Positions 2,858 through 58,745 of a stretch of 64,000 bases of DNA are shown piece after piece (position 1 is the first letter of the stretch; the number at the start of each line of letters is the position of its first letter). The notes below the pieces were generated by a model. It searched no databases. It saw only the letters and a list, made by a program, of their open reading frames with translations, and was not told the origin of the DNA. The position numbers and the translations under genes are program-made. Origin of the DNA: Acutalibacteraceae bacterium (GTDB taxonomy: Bacteria > Bacillota > Clostridia > Oscillospirales > Acutalibacteraceae); contig JAZKZS010000013.1 in assembly GCA_045612765.1 (NCBI GenBank), positions 5,275-69,274 on the forward strand, written 5' to 3'.

Positions 2858-3982
2858 TTAATCTCCTAAAATAAATTGCGCTATATGTAAAAAGTTTTTT
2901 ATTACATTGTTTTTATCTTCATATTTATAAAGCTTAATATCGTTTTCGGCTTTAATTTGCTGTTCTAACAAAACCTTGCCGTTTTGCATATAAACCGCTT
3001 TACCTATTACCTCGCCCTTATTAACGGGTGCAAATATATATGGCGGCAAATATACCTGACAGCTAAAGCCCTCACTTTCGCTGCTATTTAATAAAAACGG
3101 TTTTATTTTAACGGTTAGGCTTTCAGTCGTACCGCTTATAACGGGAATTTCATACTCGCTTTTTTTAGGTGTAATTTCGGTTTGTATTATTTTTGAAAGC
3201 CCATACTGCAGCATATTTTTATGGTCTTGCCAGTCGTTAGGTGCATTAAGGGTTACCGCTATAACGTACTTGCCGCCGCTTTTAACCGCCGACACCAAGC
3301 ATCGTCCCGACTTTTTGGTAAAGCCTGTTTTAACACCCACACATCCGTTAACCATTTTTAAAAGCTTGTTGTGGTTTGTAAGGGTGCGCCTATAAGGCGG
3401 ATTACCGTAATTTAAAACTGCACTTTTGCAACCAACCGCCGCCGCAAAATCGTTGTTTTGCATTGCATATTTTGTAAGCAAGGCTAAATCGTAAGCGGTG
3501 GTGTAATGGTTTTCATCATCAAGACCCGACGGGGTAACAAAATTAGTGTTTTTAAGGCCAATTTCCTTTGCCTTATTGTTCATAAGAACGGCAAAATCCT
3601 TTGTGCTGCCCGCCATAACAATTGCAATAGTATTTGCCGCATCATTACCTGATGCCAGCATTAAGCCGTAAAGCAAATCACGAAGTGTTACCTTATCACC
3701 AACCAAAAGCCCCATTGACGAGCCTTCAACCTGTACCATTTCGGCAGTTATGGTAATTTCACGGTTTAAATTGCCGTGTTCACAAAGCAAAAGCCCCGTC
3801 ATAATTTTGGTGGTACTTGCCATTGGAAGCCGCTTATCACAATTTTTTGAAAACAAAACCTCGCCCGTGTCACCGCAAATAACCACCGCCGCCTTGGCCG
3901 AAACCTCAAGCGCTGAAGCAGTTATTGGTAATGATACGAAAATCATTATTAAAACAGTAAAAACCGAAGCTAACCTTTTCAC
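2858..3982 (-). CDS. D-alanyl-D-alanine carboxypeptidase (serine-type, PBP5 family)
   Basis: Signal peptide plus SxxK (ASTTKIMT), SxN (ASGND) and KTG (VKTGFT) motifs. The second GTG at 3982 lies 6 nt after GGGGTG, so I prefer it to 3991. Confidence 0.88.
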   Translation of the reverse strand: MKRLASVFTVLIMIFVSLPITASALEVSAKAAVVICGDTGEVLFSKNCDKRLPMASTTKIMTGLLLCEHGNLNREITITAEMVQVEGSSMGLLVGDKVTLRDLLYGLMLASGNDAANTIAIVMAGSTKDFAVLMNNKAKEIGLKNTNFVTPSGLDDENHYTTAYDLALLTKYAMQNNDFAAAVGCKSAVLNYGNPPYRRTLTNHNKLLKMVNGCVGVKTGFTKKSGRCLVSAVKSGGKYVIAVTLNAPNDWQDHKNMLQYGLSKIIQTEITPKKSEYEIPVISGTTESLTVKIKPFLLNSSESEGFSCQVYLPPYIFAPVNKGEVIGKAVYMQNGKVLLEQQIKAENDIKLYKYEDKNNVIKNFLHIAQFILGD

Positions 3983-3990
3983 AAAACACA

Positions 3991-4017
3991 CCCCGTTTTA
4001 AATTTATTAAAACGAGG
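3991..4017 (-). terminator. hairpin between ytfJ and the carboxypeptidase gene (weak terminator or RBS-occluding stem)
   Basis: 10-bp stem CCCCGTTTTA/TAAAACGAGG with one G-U pair. On the minus strand it is followed by TGTGTTTTGTG, and its 3' arm contains the GGGG of the downstream SD. Confidence 0.3.
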
Positions 4018-5057: not shown

Positions 5058-5624
5058 TTATTCATCAGTTAGGGCTAACTGCTCGCCAACATCGTTCATT
5101 TCGCCGTCCTCTTGGTTTTTTGGAAGTGGCGGTAATTCACTTAAATCGCCAAGTTGGAAGCAGCGTAAGAAGTTTTTAGTGGTACCGTAAAGCAAGGGCT
5201 TACCGGGAAGCTCTAAACGGCCACGTTCTTCAACAAGCCCCTTTTCAATAAGGGTGGTAACAACACTTGAACAGTCAACACCGCGCACCTGCTCAATAAA
5301 CGATTTGGTAACGGGTTGGTTATAAGCCACAACCGCCAACACCTCAAGCGCGGCATTTGAAAGCGGTGTGCGGCGCTTAATATCAAAGGCTTTTTTAATA
5401 TATTCACTATATTCGGCCTTGGTGGTAAGCTGATATGCATTATCAAGTCTTACAAGCTTAATACCGCTGTCGTCAGCTTCTAGCTTTTTCATTAAAAGTT
5501 CCATAATTTCAACCGTTTTGTTTGGGGTAATTTCAAACACCTGTGTAAAACGGTCTATTGATAAAGGCTCGCCACTTGCGAAAAGCACGGCTTCAAAAGC
5601 CTTAACAAGTTCATTTTTTGTCAT
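5058..5624 (-). CDS. scpB: segregation and condensation protein B
   Basis: The stretch EAVLFASGEPLSI...LEVLAVVAYNQPVTKSFIEQVRGV is typical ScpB. The gene overlaps the scpA stop. Confidence 0.9.
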   Translation of the reverse strand: MTKNELVKAFEAVLFASGEPLSIDRFTQVFEITPNKTVEIMELLMKKLEADDSGIKLVRLDNAYQLTTKAEYSEYIKKAFDIKRRTPLSNAALEVLAVVAYNQPVTKSFIEQVRGVDCSSVVTTLIEKGLVEERGRLELPGKPLLYGTTKNFLRCFQLGDLSELPPLPKNQEDGEMNDVGEQLALTDE

Positions 5625-6340
5625 TTGCGCTTACGCTCCTTAATTAACGAAATTTCCTGTTCTTCACCGTCACCCGTAACAACAACACGGTTAGCTTTGC
5701 AAAGCTCAAGCACGGCTAAAAAGGTTGCCACCATTTCGGAACGGCTTTCAGCATTACCGTAAAGCTCAACAAGCTTTTTGCGGTTACCCTTCCAAAGAGT
5801 ACGAATAACAAACACAATTTTGGTTGAAACCGCCACAATTTTTTTTGCAACAATTTTGGTAAAGGGTGCGGTAGATGGCGGCAAACGGCGTTTGCCCCTG
5901 CCCACAGCCGAAATATATGCATCAAACACAACCTGTTTATCGTGCTTTAACACATAGGTCTTGTCCACCTCAATGTCGGCAGGAAGGCGCACAAACAAAT
6001 CAAAGCCGCCCTGCATTTGCGAAAACTTTTTAGCCATTTGCTGACAAACTAAGTATTCGAGCAGTTCGCCTGTAAGTTCTTCCTTAAGCTTAACAACCTC
6101 GTCGTGCTTGGGAAGTAAGCTTACGGTTTTTATGTACAAAAGACGTGACGCCATTTCCAAAAAATCGCTCGAAATTTCCATTTCGCCCTCTTTAACGGCT
6201 TCAATTTGAGCAAGATATTGGTCGATAAGCTCCAACAAAGGAATATCGTAAATATTATATTTGTTACGTGCAATAAGCTGCAGTAACAAATCAAGCGGGC
6301 CTTCAAAGCCGTCCAGCCTATAACTTAAAGTTTGTTCCAT
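5621..6340 (-). CDS. scpA: segregation and condensation protein A
   Basis: The stretch FEGPLDLLLQLIARNKYNIYDIPL is typical ScpA (kleisin). It lies upstream of scpB. Confidence 0.9.
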   Translation of the reverse strand: MEQTLSYRLDGFEGPLDLLLQLIARNKYNIYDIPLLELIDQYLAQIEAVKEGEMEISSDFLEMASRLLYIKTVSLLPKHDEVVKLKEELTGELLEYLVCQQMAKKFSQMQGGFDLFVRLPADIEVDKTYVLKHDKQVVFDAYISAVGRGKRRLPPSTAPFTKIVAKKIVAVSTKIVFVIRTLWKGNRKKLVELYGNAESRSEMVATFLAVLELCKANRVVVTGDGEEQEISLIKERKRK

Positions 6341-6348
6341 TAGTCACC

Positions 6349-7026
6349 TCAAAAAAACAATTGAAAAGGTAAAGACACAATTTCATTAATAAAATTCATT
6401 ATAGCGGTAGCAATCGTATCTATCGGAAGCGTTAAGATGTCTGATGCAATGAGAGCAAGCACAATTACCATTAAAATGCGTTCATACTGCATAACCTTCC
6501 AATAATATTTATCAGGTAAAATTGCAAACAAAATGCGTGAGCCGTCAAACGGAGGGATGGGTATAAAGTTAAAAACTGCCAAATAGATATTATAAAAAGC
6601 AATAGTCACAAAAAAGTCCCACGCGTATACCGCAAAAATGCCGAGCGGTGTAGCAAAAACAAAAATTATGTAAGCAAACACCATAGAAATTGTTGCCGAA
6701 ATAATATTTGCCGCAGGACCTGCAAATGCGGTTATCGCCATACCTATTTTAGGATTGTTAAAATTACGGGGGTTAACCTGTACAGCCTTTGCCCAACCAA
6801 CACCTAAAAACAACATAGATAAAGCACCTATATAATCGATATGCGCAAAGGGATTAAGGGTAAGTCTGCCTTGGTAACGGGGTGTAGGGTCACCAAGCTT
6901 TGTAGCAATAAAGCCGTGCGCCCATTCGTGAACAGGCATTGTTAGAAATATTATCACCAAACAGGATAACACGTGAACAATTAAGTCGGATATTTGAAAA
7001 TCACCTGTTATTATATCCATCAACAA
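6349..7026 (-). CDS. site-2 protease family (peptidase M50) membrane metalloprotease
   Basis: HEWAHG zinc motif in a polytopic protein. The TTG start lies 7 nt after GGAGTG. Confidence 0.8.
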   Translation of the reverse strand: MLMDIITGDFQISDLIVHVLSCLVIIFLTMPVHEWAHGFIATKLGDPTPRYQGRLTLNPFAHIDYIGALSMLFLGVGWAKAVQVNPRNFNNPKIGMAITAFAGPAANIISATISMVFAYIIFVFATPLGIFAVYAWDFFVTIAFYNIYLAVFNFIPIPPFDGSRILFAILPDKYYWKVMQYERILMVIVLALIASDILTLPIDTIATAIMNFINEIVSLPFQLFF

Positions 7027-7076
7027 GACATATCACTCCAAATTAGCATATTATTAGTTATATTATAATATATATT

Positions 7077-7095
7077 ACCAAAAAAGACAAGAAGA
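7077..7095. repeat. 19-nt direct repeat, copy 1 (ACCAAAAAAGACAAGAAGA)
   Basis: Identical to 7983-8001. Copy 2 is the 5' half of the terminator hairpin after the flippase gene. Confidence 0.8.
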
Positions 7096-7100
7096 AATAT

Positions 7101-7135
7101 AAAAACGGTGAGCAGAAAACTGCCCACCGTTTTTT
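7101..7135 (-). terminator. rho-independent terminator after the 75-aa ORF
   Basis: 11-bp stem ACGGTGAGCAG/CTGCCCACCGT with one mismatch, flanked by A5 and T5. Confidence 0.65.
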
Positions 7136-7150
7136 ATGCCATAATGATAA

Positions 7151-7378
7151 TTAAGCCTTAAGCCATTCGTCTGCCTTGTCAGCTGACATTCTCTTAATGT
7201 TTTCTTCGGGGTACTTAGAATCAACGCCGCCGTTTACATAAAGAAAATATTTGCCGCCTTCGGTTACATAAAGGCTTTCTTCATAACCTGCTGCATCACC
7301 GAATGCACCAAAGGTGTTCTTCTTAACAAGTGTTGCAGTTTCAGTATTATATTCAACCTTGCAAATGATTTTTTTCAT
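7151..7378 (-). CDS. hypothetical small protein (75 aa)
   Basis: ORF 7151..7420. The ATG at 7378 (MKKIICKVEYN...) lies 8 nt after GGAG. I recognise no family. Confidence 0.5.
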   Translation of the reverse strand: MKKIICKVEYNTETATLVKKNTFGAFGDAAGYEESLYVTEGGKYFLYVNGGVDSKYPEENIKRMSADKADEWLKA

Positions 7379-7603
7379 TTGTTTTACTCCTTTTTTAGAT
7401 TTCATAAATATTATACACATTATAATCTAAAATTCAATAGTCGAAATGCACATAAATAATTAACAGAATAAATCAATGTTGATAGTTTTATATTTTGTGG
7501 AGAGCGTTAAGGATTTATACTATAAGAATATCGCTTTTAATAAAACCGTCATAATGCTTATACACAAAGTTCATACCGTATTCTTCAATATTGCCCGTAA
7601 TCA

Positions 7604-11116: not shown

Positions 11117-12169
11117 CTATCTATCCTTAAATTTATTGCTTCTTACGGGGTGACGTAGCTTTCTTAAAGCCTTTGCTTCAATTTGGCGAATACGCTCACG
11201 TGTAACGTTAAATTCCGAGCCAACCTCTTCAAGGGTATGGCATCTGCCGTCCATAAGACCAAAGCGCAAACGAATAACGGCTTCTTCACGGGGTGTAAGA
11301 GTCTTTAAAACACCGTCGATATCTTCGTTTGTAATGGTTTTCAAAGCAGCTTCATCAGGTGCCAATGCGTCTTCGTCACGGATAAAGTCCATAAGGCGAG
11401 AATCTTCCTCAGGACCTATTGGTGTTTCCATTGAAACAGGTTCCTGTGCGACACGCATAATTTCACGTACACGTTCAACTGGTAAATCCATCTTTTCAGC
11501 AATAAGCTCTTCACTTGGCTCTGAGCCGTTTTCGTGCAAAAGCTGACTTTGAATTTTCTTTAAACGGTTAATGGTTTCAACCATGTGAACAGGAATACGA
11601 ATAGTTCTTGCCTGGTCGGCAATGGCTCGGGTAATAGCTTGTCTAATCCACCATGTAGCATAGGTTGAGAATTTAAAGCCCTTTGTATAGTCGAACTTAT
11701 CAACAGCCTTAATAAGACCAACGTTACCCTCTTGAATTAGGTCAAGGAAGTACATACCACGGCCAACGTATTTTTTAGCAATACTTACAACAAGACGAAG
11801 GTTTGCTTCGGTAAGACGTTGCTTTGCATACTGACTGCCTTCGCTTATTTTAACCGCAAGTTCAATTTCCTCCTCAGAAGACAAAAGCGGAACACGGCCA
11901 ATTTCACGAAGATAAACTTTTACAGGGTCATCAAGTGAAATATTATCAAAATTTGTGTCATCGGTTAAAGCATCAACGTCAACGTCTACCTCTTTAAGCT
12001 CTTCTTCGGTAGGTTCTTCGTCGAAATCAAGTTCTAAAACAGTAGGCTCAGAAAAAAGCTCCTCTAAATCCTCGGGTGCGTTTTCAATATCGTGTATACT
12101 TTCTTCTTTAGGCTCGATTTCTTCAATTTCGGTATTTAAAAGTTTTTCTTCCTTTTTTGTTTTAGCCAT
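11117..12169 (-). CDS. rpoD: RNA polymerase primary sigma factor
   Basis: Acidic N-terminus, region 2 ([27 protein letters not shown]) and region 4 ([30 protein letters not shown]). Immediately downstream of dnaG. Confidence 0.95.
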
Positions 12170-23564: not shown

Positions 23565-23597
23565 TAAAAAAGGCAATTCAGTAAGAACTGAATTGCC
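23565..23597 (-). promoter_or_regulatory. terminator-like hairpin in the pflB 5' leader (candidate attenuator)
   Basis: Minus strand has an 11-bp perfect stem GGCAATTCAGT/ACTGAATTGCC with loop TCTT. It is followed by T6, then immediately ATGGAGG (SD) and the ATG at 23550. Confidence 0.45.
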
Positions 23598-23672
23598 CAG
23601 ACGGTCGACATAACTATCAATGCAATTCCCGTGGTTATATCCACAATCCGTCAGTCTTGCACTGTATAGTAT

Positions 23673-27831: not shown

Positions 27832-28863
27832 TTAGATTTCAGCGAAGTACTTAATGGTGCGAACCATTTGGCTGGTGTAGCTGTTTTCGTTGTCATACCA
27901 AGAAACAACTTGTACTTCATAAAGGTCGTCAGCAATCTTAGCTACCATTGTTTGAGTAGCATCGAAGAGAGAACCGTAACGCATACCGATAACGTCAGAA
28001 GAAACGATTTGATCTTCATTGTAACCGAAAGAATCAGAAGCAGCAGCCTTCATAGCAGCGTTGATGCCTTCCTTAGTTACGTCAGTACCCTTAACAACAG
28101 CGGTAAGGATAGTGGTAGAACCGGTAGCAACAGGAACACGTTGAGCAGAGCCGATGAGCTTGCCGTTGAGTTCAGGAATTACAAGACCGATAGCCTTAGC
28201 AGCGCCGGTGCTGTTAGGAACGATGTTAGCAGCGCCTGCACGTGCACGACGAAGGTCACCCTTTCTGTGAGGACCGTCAAGAATCATTTGGTCGCCGGTG
28301 TAAGCGTGAATGGTGCTCATGATACCGCTTTGGATAGCAGCATAATCGTTAAGAGCCTTAGCCATAGGAGCGAGGCAGTTAGTTGTGCAAGAAGCAGCAG
28401 AAATGATAGTATCTTCTTTGGTGAGGATGTCTTCATTTACGCTGAATACAACTGTGGGAAGATCGTTGCCTGCGGGAGCAGAAATAACAACCTTCTTAGC
28501 ACCTGCATCGATGTGAGCCTGTGACTTTTCTTTTGAGCAGTAGAAACCGGTGCATTCGAGAACTACGTCAACACCGAGTTCGCCCCAAGGAAGATCCTTA
28601 GCGTCTTTTTCAGCATAGATTTTGAGAGTTTTGCCGTCAACAGTGATTGTGCCGGCTTCATCATCAGCAGCTACGGTGTGAAGATTTTCACCGATGTAAC
28701 CGCAGTAGCCACCTTGAGCGGTGTCATACTTGAGAAGATTTGCGAGCATTGAGGGCTTTGTAAGGTCGTTGATAGCTACTACATCGTAACCTTCAGCACC
28801 AAACATTTGACGGAATGCGAGACGACCGATACGGCCGAAACCATTAATTGCAACTTTAACCAT
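27832..28863 (-). CDS. gap: type I glyceraldehyde-3-phosphate dehydrogenase
   Basis: INGFGRIGR at the N-terminus, active site SCTTNCLAP and WYDNE. Confidence 0.95.
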
Positions 28864-29002
28864 TGGAATATACCTCCTAATATTTTTACTTTTATATTTT
28901 ACATTATTTGTGCAATTATTTCAAGTGGTTTGTTTATTTTTTAACAATTTTTTTAAAATTTAGATATTTTGGCATAATAACAAAGTGTCAGGAGGGCGTT
29001 AT

Positions 29003-32340: not shown

Positions 32341-33096
32341 TTACACTGATTTTTCAATTTGCTTTTTAATAAAGACAGAACGAACAGCATGTAAATACGG
32401 TAAAAAAATAAAATTCACACCATAATTTGCCGATGCTAGACACATTCTCAACAAATCATTCATACCGGGCAATTTTATAATTATAATACCCAACGCAAAA
32501 GCTATCACTAACCATAAAATAAGAGAAATACTTAAAAACACAGTTAGCCAAAACTTTTTGTGCATAAGATTATACGAAAATTCAATAGCTTCTTTAGCGG
32601 TACCTTCATTAAGTGCAAAATGATAGAAGGCAGCGAAAAGTTTGTATTCAAAATATATTTCAAAAATATTTATCAAAGCCGAAAAAAACAAAATCATTAA
32701 ACCATAGTTGGCATATAACTCACTTTCAGCCAAACCGTCAAGAAATAAACTAATAAAGCCAAAAATTATTAACGGTAAATATATCAAAATAACCTTTATA
32801 AGTTTTGAAAAAGAAAATTCAAACTTTATAGGTATATTATTTAATGCCATCGCAGGCACTTTAAAAAGCAAATATTTTGCCAAAGGCAAAACAACACAAT
32901 AAGCCAAAACAAAAAACAATATCCAAAGCCAAAACTGTGGTGTTGCCCAATTTTTTAAACCGTCATTATAAAAAATGAAATAACAGCAAGCACTGATAAT
33001 GCAGTTTGTCAAGATATGTAAAATTGTAGGAAATATAAAATATTTATAATTTTTAAAAAGAATTTTTCTTGCTTCTTTTTTAATTTCTCTAAACAT
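32341..33096 (-). CDS. polytopic membrane protein, possibly DUF975-like
   Basis: 251 aa starting MFREIKKEARKILFKNYK, with several TM helices. The family assignment is from memory only. Confidence 0.5.
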   Translation of the reverse strand: MFREIKKEARKILFKNYKYFIFPTILHILTNCIISACCYFIFYNDGLKNWATPQFWLWILFFVLAYCVVLPLAKYLLFKVPAMALNNIPIKFEFSFSKLIKVILIYLPLIIFGFISLFLDGLAESELYANYGLMILFFSALINIFEIYFEYKLFAAFYHFALNEGTAKEAIEFSYNLMHKKFWLTVFLSISLILWLVIAFALGIIIIKLPGMNDLLRMCLASANYGVNFIFLPYLHAVRSVFIKKQIEKSV

Positions 33097-33126: not shown

Positions 33127-33155
33127 ATTTTAACATAAATTTAAAAATATTGCAA
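33127..33155 (-). promoter_or_regulatory. sigma-A type promoter for the 32341..33096 gene
   Basis: Minus strand reads TTGCAA, a 17-nt spacer ending in TGT, then TAAAAT. Confidence 0.5.
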
Positions 33156-33169
33156 TTATATAAATTGGA

Positions 33170-33381
33170 AGTTTATCGCTCGGTTGAATGGATATATCAT
33201 TGGCTCCCTCTGACGAGGGAGCTGGCACGAGGAACTCGTGACTGAGGGAGAGAAAGTGCTTATTTACAGTGTTTTCGGTCTCTCCCTCCGTCTTTTTGCT
33301 TTGCAAAAATCCACCTCCTTCATCAGATGGAGGCAAGGGTCTGTACAATAATTCCGAATTCCGCATTACGCATTCCGAATT
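33170..33381 (+). repeat. hairpin-dense non-coding element C (ORF-less relative of the DUF559 cassette?)
   Basis: The element contains five hairpins. They are GCTCCCTC-TGAC-GAGGGAGC (33203-33222), CACGAG-GAA-CTCGTG (33226-33240) and a 10-bp stem GAGGGAGAGA/TCTCTCCCTC around a 25-nt loop (33244-33288). The last two are TTTTTGC-TTT-GCAAAAA (33293-33309) and CCTCC..GGAGG (33314-33333). An ATTCCGAATT direct repeat follows at 33351-33360 and 33372-33381. The element lies between an upstream terminator and a downstream promoter. Confidence 0.7.
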
Positions 33382-33421
33382 GGGCATCATCCCCACAAAC
33401 TATAATTTTAAAATTAAATTA

Positions 33422-33458
33422 CAAAAAGAAAACCCGACCTTGCGGTCGGGTAAAAAAT
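33422..33458 (-). terminator. terminator after the 33464..34045 gene
   Basis: 8-bp stem ACCCGACC/GGTCGGGT with loop TTGC. On the minus strand it is followed by TTTTCTTTTT. Confidence 0.75.
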
Positions 33459-33463
33459 TCATA

Positions 33464-34045
33464 TTAAAGCGCCATTGCAAATTCAAGCGGATATGCCAAA
33501 TCGCTGAAAAGAATATTAAATCCAAACTGCGATTCTTCATTTGGTAAGAAAATTGTTGTACTTACAGCCTCTACCTTTTCGCCAAAATGATAATCAATAA
33601 TAACATTGGTAATTACAAGATAGCTGCCGTCTTCATTTTCAACAACCGAAGCAATTTCATGCTCGTAAAGGTCATATCCACGGGGGATTACATAAAAATA
33701 GCCGTCCTTTTTAGGTGCTTCGGGGTTAAACTGTGAAAAGTCGTCATAAATTCGGCCGTACATATTAAAGATATAATCCTTAATATACGCTTCCTCAATA
33801 TAACCTTCATTTGCAAGGTCTAAAAGTGCAAGCGCAGAATCGTTAACAAATGCTTGGTCGTTATAAAATGCTTCACTATAAACAAAGTTGTGGTTAAGCA
33901 TATTTAAGAAACGTGCCTCCAACACCTTTGCGCTATCAAAGGCTGGAGTATCTTGTTGTATCTCAACCGATTTAACGGGGGCAAAACTGCAAAAGGTTAA
34001 TAAAACAATACTGCAAACTAAAACCACTGTGATAAGTTTTTTCAT
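33464..34045 (-). CDS. hypothetical secreted protein
   Basis: ORF 33464..34132. The ATG at 34045 (MKKLITVVLVCSIVLLTFCSFAP, a signal peptide) lies 7 nt after GGAGG. Confidence 0.55.
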   Translation of the reverse strand: MKKLITVVLVCSIVLLTFCSFAPVKSVEIQQDTPAFDSAKVLEARFLNMLNHNFVYSEAFYNDQAFVNDSALALLDLANEGYIEEAYIKDYIFNMYGRIYDDFSQFNPEAPKKDGYFYVIPRGYDLYEHEIASVVENEDGSYLVITNVIIDYHFGEKVEAVSTTIFLPNEESQFGFNILFSDLAYPLEFAMAL

Positions 34046-34295
34046 GATTTTGCCTCCTTCAAATTTGATATTATAATTATATACGATTTCTTTTAAAATT
34101 ACCAAAAACAATTCAGTTACAAATAGTATCATTTTTGTAACCTAATTGGTTAATTTTTACTTTTCAAAATTACAAATTGTAACTAAAATTTATGCCTTTT
34201 ATTAATTTGTATGAAAATTGACTTATTGTTTACTGCAATATGCCCAAATTTATTAAAATTAAATAAATTCTTTTAACACTTTTTAAAAAAATTGG

Positions 34296-53117: not shown

Positions 53118-53495
53118 TTATTTAATGCCTTCCCCTTGAGGGGAAGGTGCCGAATATAATGAGGCGGATGAGGTGGAAATATATCTTAATATTTCTTCAC
53201 AAACGCCTCTGAAATTATTATCCACATCATAATTTGAATATCTCAAAACAGTCAAACCTAATGATTTAAAATATTCATCTCTTGTTTTATCATTTTCTAT
53301 CCCAAGCGGTTCAAAATGTTGCGAACCGTCAAGCTCGATTATAAGCTTTGCCGAAGCACAATAAAAATCAACAATATAGCACCCTATAACCTTTTGGCGA
53401 TTAAAATTCACAGATAATCCTTTTAAAAAATCAAACCATAAATGTCTTTCATGTCTTGTCATATTACGACGAAGTGTTTGTGAATTACGAGTCAA
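53118..53495 (-). CDS. DUF559 endonuclease-domain protein (Vsr/restriction-endonuclease-like fold)
   Basis: The stretch LRRNMTRHERHLWFDFLKG...NRQKVIGCYIVDFYCASAKLIIELDGSQH...LTVLRYSNYDV matches the DUF559 pattern. An in-frame ATG at 53519 with an SD lies 8 codons upstream but is cut off by a TAA at 53496-53498. Confidence 0.8.
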   Translation of the reverse strand: MTRNSQTLRRNMTRHERHLWFDFLKGLSVNFNRQKVIGCYIVDFYCASAKLIIELDGSQHFEPLGIENDKTRDEYFKSLGLTVLRYSNYDVDNNFRGVCEEILRYISTSSASLYSAPSPQGEGIK

Positions 53496-53568
53496 TTAAG
53501 GATTATTAATTGTGTTCATTTAACACCTCATCCGTCACTACGTGACACCTTCCCCTCAAGGGGAAGGC
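53127..53568 (-). mobile_element. hairpin-bounded DUF559 cassette (putative selfish mini-element)
   Basis: There is a perfect 23-bp terminal inverted repeat: 53127-53149 is the reverse complement of 53546-53568, and each copy forms a CCTTCCCC/GGGGAAGG hairpin. A second inverted pair lies inside (53165-53175 vs 53524-53534). The only ORF inside is a DUF559 endonuclease. Confidence 0.55.
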
Positions 53569-54451
53569 TTTGTTCGTAAATTTCAATAATCTTATTTAGC
53601 CTGTGATTAAGTCCCGAAACTGTAATAGGTGTGGGTGAAATTTTGCAAAGCTCTTTAAGTGTTGCTTCGGGGTTGTTTTTACGCAAAAGCGCCGCGTCCA
53701 AAAGCTCTTGCGGTAGGCTTAAAAGCCTGTCCGCCTGTTCTAAATATTCAATGGCGGTGCGCTGCTTTAGTGAAGCCTCAACCGTTTTTGTAATATTTGC
53801 ATTATCACAATTTCGTTGGCGGTTAATTTTATTTTTAACACTTTTCATTATTTTAGCATCCATAATTTCAAGTGTGCGGTTAGTGTCGCCCATAAGGGTT
53901 AAAAGGTCCTCAATCATACTGCTGTCTTTAGTGTAAAGCACAGTAGCAGTTCCCCTTTGGGTTTTCTTCATAAAAATATCATACTGCTGTAAAAGGTTGT
54001 CCAAATCGTTTGCAAGCGCTTCATTTTTAACCGAAAATTCGGCACGGTATTCTTTTTCGGGGTCGTTAATATTACCGCAAGCCAAAAAAGCACCGCGAAT
54101 AAAGCTTAAAGGGCAACATTCCCTTGTAAAAAGACTGCGGTCAATAACCGTATCACTAATGCCAAAGTCGATAAGCGCCAAAATTTTAAGTCGGTCAGAG
54201 GCCGATTCCACCTCGGCTTTATATGTAGGTCTTTTACTGCCACCACAGGTAATTTTAACCTCGGCACCATAATTGAACTTAATTAAATCGGCATAGGCCT
54301 TGGCAACATTTTCGTTACCTGTTTGAAGGGCTATTCTTTTTATGCAAAAAGACCTTCCGAAAAGCATAAACCCATATATATATGACGGCTTACAGCAGGC
54401 GGATGGTCTTATGGCGATAAGTTCGTTTTTAACGTCGCTACAAAAGGACAT
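53528..54451 (-). CDS. whiA: DNA-binding protein WhiA
   Basis: Has MSFCSDVKNELI and a C-terminal HTH (ELCKISPTPITVSGLNHRLNKI). The last 13 codons run into the cassette repeat. Confidence 0.9.
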   Translation of the reverse strand: MSFCSDVKNELIAIRPSACCKPSYIYGFMLFGRSFCIKRIALQTGNENVAKAYADLIKFNYGAEVKITCGGSKRPTYKAEVESASDRLKILALIDFGISDTVIDRSLFTRECCPLSFIRGAFLACGNINDPEKEYRAEFSVKNEALANDLDNLLQQYDIFMKKTQRGTATVLYTKDSSMIEDLLTLMGDTNRTLEIMDAKIMKSVKNKINRQRNCDNANITKTVEASLKQRTAIEYLEQADRLLSLPQELLDAALLRKNNPEATLKELCKISPTPITVSGLNHRLNKIIEIYEQSLPLEGKVSRSDG

Positions 54452-58607: not shown

Positions 58608-58629
58608 ACACTTTTATACTTCAAATTAT

Positions 58630-58745
58630 AGTTTATCGCTGCGCGATTAAATAATAAATAATAAAATTGATGTCGGCTTTGCCGACATATTTATATGTCG
58701 TGGCATAGGCACACATTTTTTTCTTATTCGTTTTTTATTATTCAT
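58630..58745 (+). repeat. structured AT-armed element A (same family as 62745-62850)
   Basis: The element begins with AGTTTATCGCT, which also starts element C at 33170. It then has hairpin ATCGC-TGC-GCGAT and an AT-rich arm TAAATAATAAATAATAAAATTG. Two more hairpins follow: ATGTCGGC..GCCGACAT (58670-58688) and one at 58696-58715. The right arm ends ...TTTTTTATTATTCATT. Confidence 0.65.

Follow-up and report, generated by a model that had tools for sequence, protein, structure and literature searches.

Structure of the locus

We analysed a stretch of 64,000 nucleotides from contig JAZKZS010000013.1 of an Acutalibacteraceae bacterium (hereafter the window; GC content 39%), which carries a hairpin-dense intergenic element at positions 33162-33408. 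This segment, 247 bp long, is one member of a very widespread family of mobile palindromic DNA repeats found in gut Clostridia; the family appears not to have been described before. Minus-strand genes flank it, with a 222-aa open reading frame (ORF) upstream (33464-34132) and a 251-aa membrane-protein ORF downstream (32341-33096); neither protein matches a Pfam family. A scan recovered the clean terminator of the 222-aa ORF (33451-33432) and a promoter-like site ahead of the membrane-protein ORF (33155-33127), both on the minus strand, as a preliminary description of this DNA had proposed. The gap between them measures about 276 nt and not the 210 nt or so given there. The same description had called the segment ORF-less, which holds in substance: two mechanical ORFs (88 and 92 aa) run through it, and Pfam has no family for either.

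All of the hairpins reported initially were found in place. On the plus strand they comprise GCTCCCTC-TGAC-GAGGGAGC (33203-33222), CACGAG-GAA-CTCGTG (33226-33240), TTTTTGC-TTT-GCAAAAA (33293-33309) and CCTCCTTC..GATGGAGG (33314-33333, with one T.T mismatch), in addition to a 10/10 pairing of GAGGGAGAGA (33244-33253) with TCTCTCCCTC (33279-33288) across exactly 25 nt. Folding of positions 33130-33460 as RNA yielded z-scores of -5.56 for the minus strand and -4.96 for the plus strand, with 0 of 100 dinucleotide shuffles as good in either case; folding of 33162-33408 as single-stranded DNA gave a z-score of -4.76. Scores near -5 on both strands rule out chance hairpins, and the hairpin-dense structure is real. 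The segment has a GC content of 0.49, compared with 0.21-0.33 for the flanking DNA. When the whole window was scanned for perfect stems of 7 bp or longer, 8-bp pyrimidine-rich stems with 4-nt loops were found only at 33203, 53128 and 53548, the remaining stems being mostly A/T-flanked and terminator-like.

The unit proved larger than the 33170-33381 delimited at first. End-to-end alignment with three external copies from Candidatus (Ca.) Fimenecus and Ca. Pelethomonas metagenome-assembled genomes (MAGs), namely L230:7229-7466, L196:4342-4579 and L216:4910-5122 (external loci are cited by L numbers), shows similarity ending at terminal inverted repeats (TIRs); neither these nor the heptamer tract had been mentioned, whereas the hairpins had been correctly recognised. 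Read in gene orientation, from 33408 to 33162, the order is TIR, heptamer tract, linker, inverted module B, spacer, module A, linker and TIR. The features, by ascending coordinate, are the following.

33162-33408, minus strand (the orientation of module A and of the flanking genes): whole element, 247 bp, palindromic, bounded by imperfect TIRs.
33162-33178: promoter-proximal TIR, AAATTGGAAGTTTATCG (minus strand CGATAAACTTCCAATTT), matching the family end CCGATAAACTCCAATTT / AAATTGGAGTTTATCGG.
33179-33201: linker between the promoter-proximal TIR and module A.
33202-33253, minus strand: module A, TCTCTCCCTCAGTC / ACGAG-ttc-CTCGT / CAGCTCCCTC-gtca-GAGGGAGCC, also written with GCCAGCTCCCTC-gtca-GAGGGAGCC as its last part.
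33254-33278: spacer of 25 nt between the inverted modules, at the same position as the DUF559 ORF in the cassette form (see below).
33279-33334, plus strand: module B, TCTCTCCCTCCGTC / TTTTTGC-ttt-GCAAAAA / CCACCTCCTTC-atca-GATGGAGGC, also written with TCCACCTCCTTC-atca-GATGGAGGC as its last part.
33335-33349: linker between module B and the heptamer tract.
33350-33381: quasi-palindromic heptamer tract, with AATKCGK (minus strand) repeated about 4.5 times.
33388-33408: terminator-proximal TIR, minus strand AAATTATAGTTTGTGGGGATG, matching the left ends of L230, L196, L161, L245 and L001:11617.

In each module (52-56 nt), a hypervariable hairpin stands in the middle, preceded by a 5′ segment and followed by an outer hairpin, both of which are conserved. 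The inverted modules share their 5′ segments, which accounts for the 10/10 pairing of GAGGGAGAGA with TCTCTCCCTC. The two ends of the element, AAATTGGAAGTTTATCG and CACAAACTATAATTT, are imperfect with respect to each other and each match family ends; the TIRs are perfect in L216 (AAATTGGAGTTTATCGG / CCGATAAACTCCAATTT). The promoter-proximal TIR is present at the same junction in L002 and L244. The heptamer tract occupies the same position in L230 and L196 and the inverted position in L002; related tracts occur in L101 and in a Klebsiella plasmid. Module A matches the 30 conserved bases of its subfamily exactly. Module B is near-identical to its counterparts in L144 and L125, and its outer hairpin lies about two substitutions away from the consensus CCTCCCTC/GAGGGAGG. 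Because of this decay of the outer hairpin, the copy looks old and is probably inert.

Presence, absence and inversion of the element

The 251-aa protein has only four homologues in a large protein collection, and the contigs that encode them form an allelic series at the orthologous site:

L001 (GCA_045632165.1), 86% aa identity: element absent; the T-run of the terminator runs straight into AATTGCAATATTTTT, and the intergenic region measures 101 nt against 367 in the window.
L245 / L247, 67% aa identity: mini element of 59 bp, composed of AAATTATAGTTTATCGAG, GCCTTCCCCTCAAGGGGAAGGC and AGATAAACCCCAATTT.
L244, 69% aa identity: module A and the same right end.
L002, 99% aa identity: the heptamer-tract end adjoins the promoter, so that the interior is inverted relative to the window; the terminal repeat on the promoter side is of the same type.

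The reverse situation was also observed. L001 carries a 160-bp element with the same ends (11617-11776) downstream of a 519-aa gene, at a site that is empty in the window. Likewise, L230 (a Ca. Fimenecus MAG) has a full-length element of the same subtype (7229-7466) just after the terminator of its gap gene (6064-7159), where the window has the terminator alone; the window's counterpart of that gene (27832-28920, minus strand) is 92% identical in protein and 82% in DNA. Together with the GC content of 39%, this similarity makes Ca. Fimenecus or a near relative within the Acutalibacteraceae the probable origin of the window. Three copies lie within 8 kb in L230. These comparisons, which reveal empty, mini, full and inverted states as well as dispersed copies, show that the element is a bounded insertion with presence, absence and inversion polymorphism at its site. 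A search of metagenome contigs for further alleles with a promoter-region pattern gave no match, that collection evidently being without this organism.

Elements bounded by AAATTGGAGTTTATCGG / CCGATAAACTCCAATTT range from 59 to 318 bp, and their palindromic cargo differs widely between copies; the TIR pair therefore serves as a carrier for hairpin modules in general. At least 7 of 12 TIR-bounded copies sit directly after a terminator. Other cargos enclosed by the same TIRs were seen in L230:2-186 and 5066-5221, L101:3484-3658, L231:3714-4031 and L001:11617-11776; they include GTCATTCTGAG..CTCAGAATGAC, GTCATTGCGAG..CTCGCAATGAC and GTAGGGGCAGG..CCTGCCCCTAC.

Within the window, a solo TIR (AAATTATAGTTTATCGCTGCGCG) is found at 58623-58645 on the plus strand, about 20 nt past a terminator; its partner end was not found. 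It carries the same TCGCTGCGCG extension as the L002 TIR and may be a remnant of another element.

Size and distribution of the family

Because such strings are recurrent in Clostridia, the module was expressed as a general pattern (CCCTCAGTC N10-24 CAGCTCCC N4-10 GGGAGC). It matched at least 120 IMG/VR contigs; the loci fetched from these contain 169 matches, and single contigs as many as 11. A strict subfamily pattern of 30 fixed bases matched at least 120 stretches of species-representative genomes, mainly from Oscillospiraceae, Acutalibacteraceae, Ruminococcaceae, Faecousia, Ca. Fimenecus and other Clostridia MAGs. Several cultured Bifidobacterium species contain the strict pattern too, which takes the family across the boundary from Bacillota to Actinomycetota. 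A few matching MAGs are labelled Bacteroidaceae or Alloprevotella and may reflect bin contamination. Pattern search and blastn thus both uncovered the related copies that the preliminary description had anticipated, in the form of a large family. Two narrow DNA patterns (one for the heptamer tract, the other for hairpins 1 and 2 with fixed stems) had no match in viral contigs. The literature on DUF559, PF04480 and REP/REPIN repeats in Clostridia/Firmicutes, of which coverage was incomplete, yielded no account of the family.

In the Bifidobacterium loci (L139, L140, L168, L179, L186, L187, L200 and L229) the 30 module-A bases are kept, sometimes as inverted doublets. Two IMG/VR contigs, L016 and L039, hold eleven modules each, partly as tandem units of about 160 nt that fill the intergenic regions (in L016, for example, reverse complement 3600-4000 and 6600-7050); these units also contain a GGGCGATTTTCATCGCCCCTACGA hairpin of the GTAG type, resembling repetitive extragenic palindromic (REP) sequences. 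In four further loci (L237, L203, L239 and L243) a conserved sigma-70-like promoter (TTGTCC-17-TATAAT) and a ribosome-binding site (RBS) come immediately after module A, and the genes downstream of them differ. The repeated upstream regions of about 250 nt in these loci suggest a paralogous gene array with the element in its upstream block.

By blastn, module A has matches of 84-88% identity in Klebsiella plasmids and faecal phage contigs. On conjugative plasmids of Klebsiella and Enterobacter, module A and an inverted B-like module lie between a truncated trpS-like ORF and rsmH-tgt-rmtG. The presence of this Oscillospirales-type repeat suggests where the rmtG aminoglycoside-resistance region may have originated, and the modules could serve as practical markers in this respect, pointing to an Oscillospirales-like donor of the segment upstream of rsmH-tgt-rmtG. 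The arrangement of A module, inverted B-like module and an 'attacgaatt' motif was seen in L123 (NZ_CP004000.1, pKP13f, about 3005-3170) and in seven other Klebsiella/Enterobacter plasmids. Searching plasmids with the TIR returned mostly chance-level matches in Yersinia and related genera (E 2-8), along with one unannotated 36-nt match in a 1.9-kb uncultured-bacterium record, which is not convincing.

Relationship to DUF559 cassettes

The preliminary description had likened the segment to a DUF559 cassette located elsewhere in the window. To place the modules in their context, 125 module-A genome matches were sorted by what lies upstream, DUF559 being detected by tblastn. An inverted module occurs within 110 nt upstream in 69 of the 125 (52 of B type and 17 of A type; background 2.7%), with spacers clustering at 25-35 nt. 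Solo modules account for 31, contig edges for 10, and in the remaining 15 a DUF559 ORF ends at the module. Twelve of these 15 have the form rc(B), ATG, an ORF of about 347 nt and A, where rc(B) denotes the reverse complement of module B; spelled out, the cassette reads GCCTCCCTC-tgac-GAGGGAGGTGG, middle stem, GACGGAGGGAGAGA, ATG, ORF of about 347 nt, TCTCCCTCAGTC... The 5′ segment of B supplies a GGAGG about 9 nt ahead of the DUF559 ATG. The ORFs are intact at 115 codons in seven of the eight translated, one having a premature stop, and they share 70-88% DNA identity between species in flanks that are mostly unrelated.

The most direct comparison comes from contig L237, which contains two paralogous intergenic regions with flanks about 90% identical and identical middle hairpins. 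One (L237:2224) is rc(B)-DUF559-A and the other (L237:4782) is rc(B)-TGGTTT-A, and a clean indel of about 350 nt, located precisely between the modules, distinguishes them. ORF-less pair and cassette thus represent alternative states of a single unit. The B/A pair is the gene-less state of a small cassette that, in other genomes, has an intact DUF559 (Vsr-like, PD-(D/E)XK) endonuclease ORF in this position. The element studied here carries the corresponding segments of the cassette family, CCGTC..CCACCTCC..GGAGG in B and CAGTC..CAGCTCCC..GGGAGC in A, and has no DUF559 ORF between its modules, the 25-nt spacer standing there alone; its state corresponds to that of L237:4782.

A profile hidden Markov model (HMM) was built with nhmmer from 47 external rc(B) modules, which had been retrieved via a neighbouring A and not selected on B, and both strands of the window were searched. 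Below E = 3 there are only four matches:

33279-33340, minus strand: module B, E 1e-12.
33195-33254, plus strand: module A, E 3.6e-8.
53531-53574, minus strand: right end of the window's DUF559 cassette, E 0.015.
53122-53151, plus strand: left end of the window's DUF559 cassette, E 0.21.

The profile thus matches both cassette ends in the expected inverted orientation, and the architectural likeness noted at the outset is one of homology. The cassette itself (53118-53571, minus strand) is separate from the element and consists of inverted CACCTCATCCG-stem-CACCTTCCCC-loop-GGGGAAGG modules around a 125-aa DUF559 ORF (Pfam DUF559, E 1.2e-30). Its reported features are present in the sequence: a 26-nt inverted repeat (I10), the hairpins CCTTCCCC at 53128-53147 and 53548-53567, TCACTACGTGA at 53535-53545, and GGATGAGGTG (53166-53175) opposite CACCTCATCC (53524-53533). 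It is not the direct counterpart of this copy that had been supposed, being, at E 0.015 and 0.21, a distant subtype and not a parent, and it lacks the TIR-bounded carrier. The proposed equivalence of CCACCTCCTTCATC in the element with CCACCTCATCC in the cassette also fails on position, CCACCTCCTTCATC being the left arm of the module B outer hairpin and CCACCTCATCC a module 5′ segment. The window's DUF559 protein, used as a query, found no relatives in viral contigs. The whiA ORF (53528-54451, minus strand) ends within the cassette end module and its last 14 or so codons (LPLEGKVSRSDG*) are module sequence; the cassette insertion therefore seems to have replaced the native 3′ end of whiA.

Predicted programmed inversions are enriched for DUF559 genes, with an odds ratio of 14 (Milman et al., PMC9881135). 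This agrees with the finding of such genes flanked by inverted modules, and with the inverted interior of L002.

Watson-Crick pairing in the stems

The middle hairpin is hypervariable: 151 distinct versions were recorded, which differ even within one contig. Nevertheless, its variable part comprises 588 Watson-Crick pairs against one G.T and seven A.C, while arms combined across different modules are Watson-Crick at 42% of positions. In alignment A2, 87% of cells are paired versus 69% in shuffles, and two-sided changes affect 75 versus 23 cells; the observed value lies beyond all 500 shuffles, slid controls score low, and G.U accounts for only 2 of the 469 cells. Stems are thus shown to be kept by Watson-Crick compensation. 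Strict Watson-Crick symmetry with almost no wobble is that of a DNA palindrome and not typical of selection on RNA; the pattern of the middle stem favours DNA-level selection. For these measurements the nhmmer profile and a pair count replaced a module covariance model, MAFFT having left the 3′ arm of the outer hairpin out of register.

A three-way covariation, involving the 5′ segment and both the left and the right arm, was considered as a sign of a switch and discarded, as it is explained by subfamily descent and by the direct-repeat similarity of 5′ segment and left arm. A hammerhead reading of CUGAUGA in module B was also dropped, no Rfam ribozyme matching up to E 10.

Interpretation

Taken together, we consider it likely that 33162-33408 is a non-coding, selfish repeat acting at the DNA level, similar to REPIN repeats and to miniature inverted-repeat transposable elements (MITEs), with modular cargo whose B/A pair represents the gene-less state of a DUF559 cassette. 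The element occupies the dead zone that separates the 222-aa gene, with its terminator, from the promoter of the 251-aa neighbour. The modules may act as DNA hairpins, cruciforms or dyad-symmetric sites recognised by a nuclease, and a DUF559 enzyme could nick in trans at or near them. Gene-conversion repair between dispersed module pairs would then spread or remove the ORF in a homing-like cycle, and the inverted arrangement of modules would allow the interior to invert. Movement of the TIR-bounded carriers would call for a separate enzyme, other than any found. The preliminary description had pictured the segment as a MITE-like, non-autonomous counterpart of the cassette. Much of that picture stands, since the segment is a non-coding, mobile-looking insertion, belongs to a large family and has an ORF-less cassette core. 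The TIR carrier, on the other hand, is absent from the cassette, target-site duplications (TSDs) are wanting, and mobilisation by DUF559 is hypothetical.

Several observations weigh against this interpretation. The flanks of 12 TIR-bounded copies contain no consistent TSD, and the junction relative to L001 is ambiguous by some 4-12 AT-rich bases, L001 being too diverged at 86%. No second full copy exists within the 64-kb window (one copy and one solo TIR). No autonomous element with these TIRs appeared in the 1.9 Mb of loci that were fetched, none of the TIR pairs there being more than 318 nt apart, and no transposase for the TIR carriers was identified in the loci examined. Viral contigs gave a single match to the TIR motif, which is rare there. 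DUF559 itself gave three matches in 1.04 Mb of module-rich viral loci, a rarity from which it follows that the modules can spread or persist where no DUF559 gene is linked to them. Patterns derived from this element served to retrieve the external loci, whose counts are lower bounds; the frequencies therefore come from biased samples. Finally, modules within 80 nt of an RBS and start codon are co-oriented with the gene in 27 cases and opposed in 3; a role at the level of RNA or expression is therefore possible, which sits poorly with a purely neutral view. (The RBS and start test was used in place of an ORF-based orientation test, which was dropped with 59 of 142 modules falling 'inside' spurious ORFs in high-GC loci.)

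The strongest competing explanation, which we regard as possible but rather unlikely, is that the B/A composite did not arise by deletion and is instead the empty target allele of a homing-type DUF559 gene, whose product recognises the pseudo-palindromic module junction and whose ORF is copied in by repair. It accommodates the placement of the ORF exactly between modules in 12 of 15 cassettes, the clean indel of L237 with identical module hairpins on either side, and the preponderance of ORF-less pairs (69) over ORF-bearing ones (15); moreover, Vsr-like domains do occur in homing endonucleases (PMC2677866, PMC3239194). The data do not tell whether the ORF was gained or lost, however, and some spacers end like the 3′ end of the ORF (..CTG-TAA-AAATC), which favours deletion. 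Homing also leaves unexplained how module pairs arrive at new loci such as the present site.

It is less probable still, though conceivable, that the host retains the element in the manner of REP sequences or bacterial interspersed mosaic elements (BIMEs), as a 3′-end stabiliser, a terminator or insulator, or a binding site for gyrase or a nucleoid protein. Its intergenic position directly after a terminator, shared by at least 7 of the 12 TIR-bounded copies, would suit such a role, as would occupation of the same site in relatives at 67-99% identity, the 27:3 bias near gene starts and the GGAGG that module B provides 9 nt before the DUF559 ATG. Yet the relative at 86% keeps the same promoter without the element, the content of the site differs radically between relatives (59 bp, 247 bp, inverted), the B hairpin is decayed here and the hairpins are not followed by a T-run.

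A structured non-coding RNA, either a small RNA or a leader or riboswitch of the 251-aa membrane protein with alternative folds, is very improbable. Predicted folding is strong, the middle stems show compensatory changes, and GCTCCCTC and TCTCTCCCTC can each pair with GAGGGAGC or GAGGGAGAGA, from which mutually exclusive folds had initially been proposed. As an RNA switch, nothing is gained from them, with stems almost devoid of G.U and an element lying between a terminator and a promoter. Indeed, its location downstream of the one and upstream of the other (a conserved promoter), the placement of modules on opposite strands, and its absence from one close relative and inversion in another strain all disfavour an RNA gene or leader, and the family is found in unrelated gene contexts. 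No known RNA family aligns: Rfam returned nothing at gathering score at the locus and, in E-value mode, only chance-level matches, the best of them on the terminator; seven external multi-copy loci likewise had no Rfam match.

There is next to no likelihood that the segment is a decayed protein gene, such as a dead DUF559 of which the 25-nt spacer is a leftover and which the 88- and 92-aa mechanical ORFs recall, or a set of chance hairpins in an AT-rich spacer, since neither ORF has a Pfam match, the modules are recognisable at E 1e-12 and 3.6e-8, fold z-scores are near -5, and Pfam, HMM and full-length alignment with external copies refute either as a full explanation.

Returning to the selfish-repeat interpretation, the effect of the element in this window is probably neutral, yet it abuts the promoter of 32341-33096 and its state varies between strains. 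The window copy is ordinary; the interest lies in the family and in its possible nuclease partner.

Comparison with known systems

In its logic, the closest analogue is the REPIN-RAYT system (PMC3116915, PMC3337134), in which RAYT is the REP-associated tyrosine transposase. Common to both are an inverted palindromic doublet with a short spacer (here rc(B), 25 nt and A, with 69 of 125 external module-A matches arranged likewise), an intergenic, non-coding and numerous distribution, and an enzyme gene that lies between inverted copies of the same units. The gene between the units is DUF559, however, which Pfam assigns to the Vsr-like PD-(D/E)XK nucleases and not to the HUH Y1 transposases; no RAYT was encountered there, and no systematic RAYT search was made. 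The units here are bipartite with a hypervariable middle hairpin, and their ends are systematically of two types, B and A. Furthermore, the same conserved bases recur across phyla and in phage-like contigs, suggesting horizontal spread. REPIN-RAYT systems, by comparison, are mostly inherited vertically.

Correia/NEMIS, RUP and MITEs derived from insertion sequences (ISs) are examples of bacterial MITEs. Like these, the element is small (247 bp without coding capacity, MITEs being under about 600 bp), TIR-bounded, structured and intergenic, present or absent between relatives, and found in several copies per contig in related genomes. Unlike them, it has no detected TSD and its cargo is exchangeable. 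It resembles a MITE in size, TIRs and polymorphism; neither a parent IS or transposase sharing its TIRs nor any other autonomous partner turned up in the 1.9 Mb of fetched loci. The BIMEs of E. coli are mosaics of REP and other short motifs, and they share with this family a limited set of palindromic 'bricks', assembled in variable order and orientation after genes; sequences and host range are unrelated, and one brick pair is here tied to a nuclease gene.

Free-standing homing endonuclease genes, including those of Vsr-like EDxHD enzymes (PMC2677866, PMC3239194), resemble the cassette in that a small nuclease ORF with a Vsr-like fold is present or absent at an otherwise identical site (L237). 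The target here is a dispersed repeat pair in place of a unique conserved gene, DUF559 is another Pfam family, and cleavage is putative. The ends of IS200/IS605 elements and palindrome-associated transposable elements (PATEs; PMC6006769 for the HUH context) also rely on subterminal hairpins, lack TSDs and have ORF-less derivatives. They differ in being without TIRs and in encoding TnpA/TnpB, neither of which is associated with this element.

By analogy with REPIN-RAYT, one might tentatively ask whether DUF559 (Vsr-like) nucleases and inverted bipartite hairpin modules constitute an unrecognised class of intragenomic replicators, based on a nuclease and recombinational copying; we view this as possible, not as probable. 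Were it true, ORF-less doublets would be the non-autonomous population, spread over Oscillospirales, Bifidobacterium and phages, with footprints in the Klebsiella rmtG plasmids. If the link between modules and DUF559 holds, a very common family whose members are annotated simply as 'endonuclease domain-containing' would acquire both a function, that of a selfish-element nuclease, and a substrate; a large class of the GC-rich hairpin clutter seen in gut Firmicutes and their phages would be accounted for; and REPIN-RAYT would have a nuclease-based counterpart. The repeats form long open stretches, which might be mistaken for small hypothetical ORFs (the GELSAKLTEG-type frame being an example), and they may fragment assemblies.

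Unrelated to the element, a ZMP/ZTP riboswitch was identified in the window at 23588-23668 on the minus strand, with a score of 59.5 bits against a gathering score of 39.

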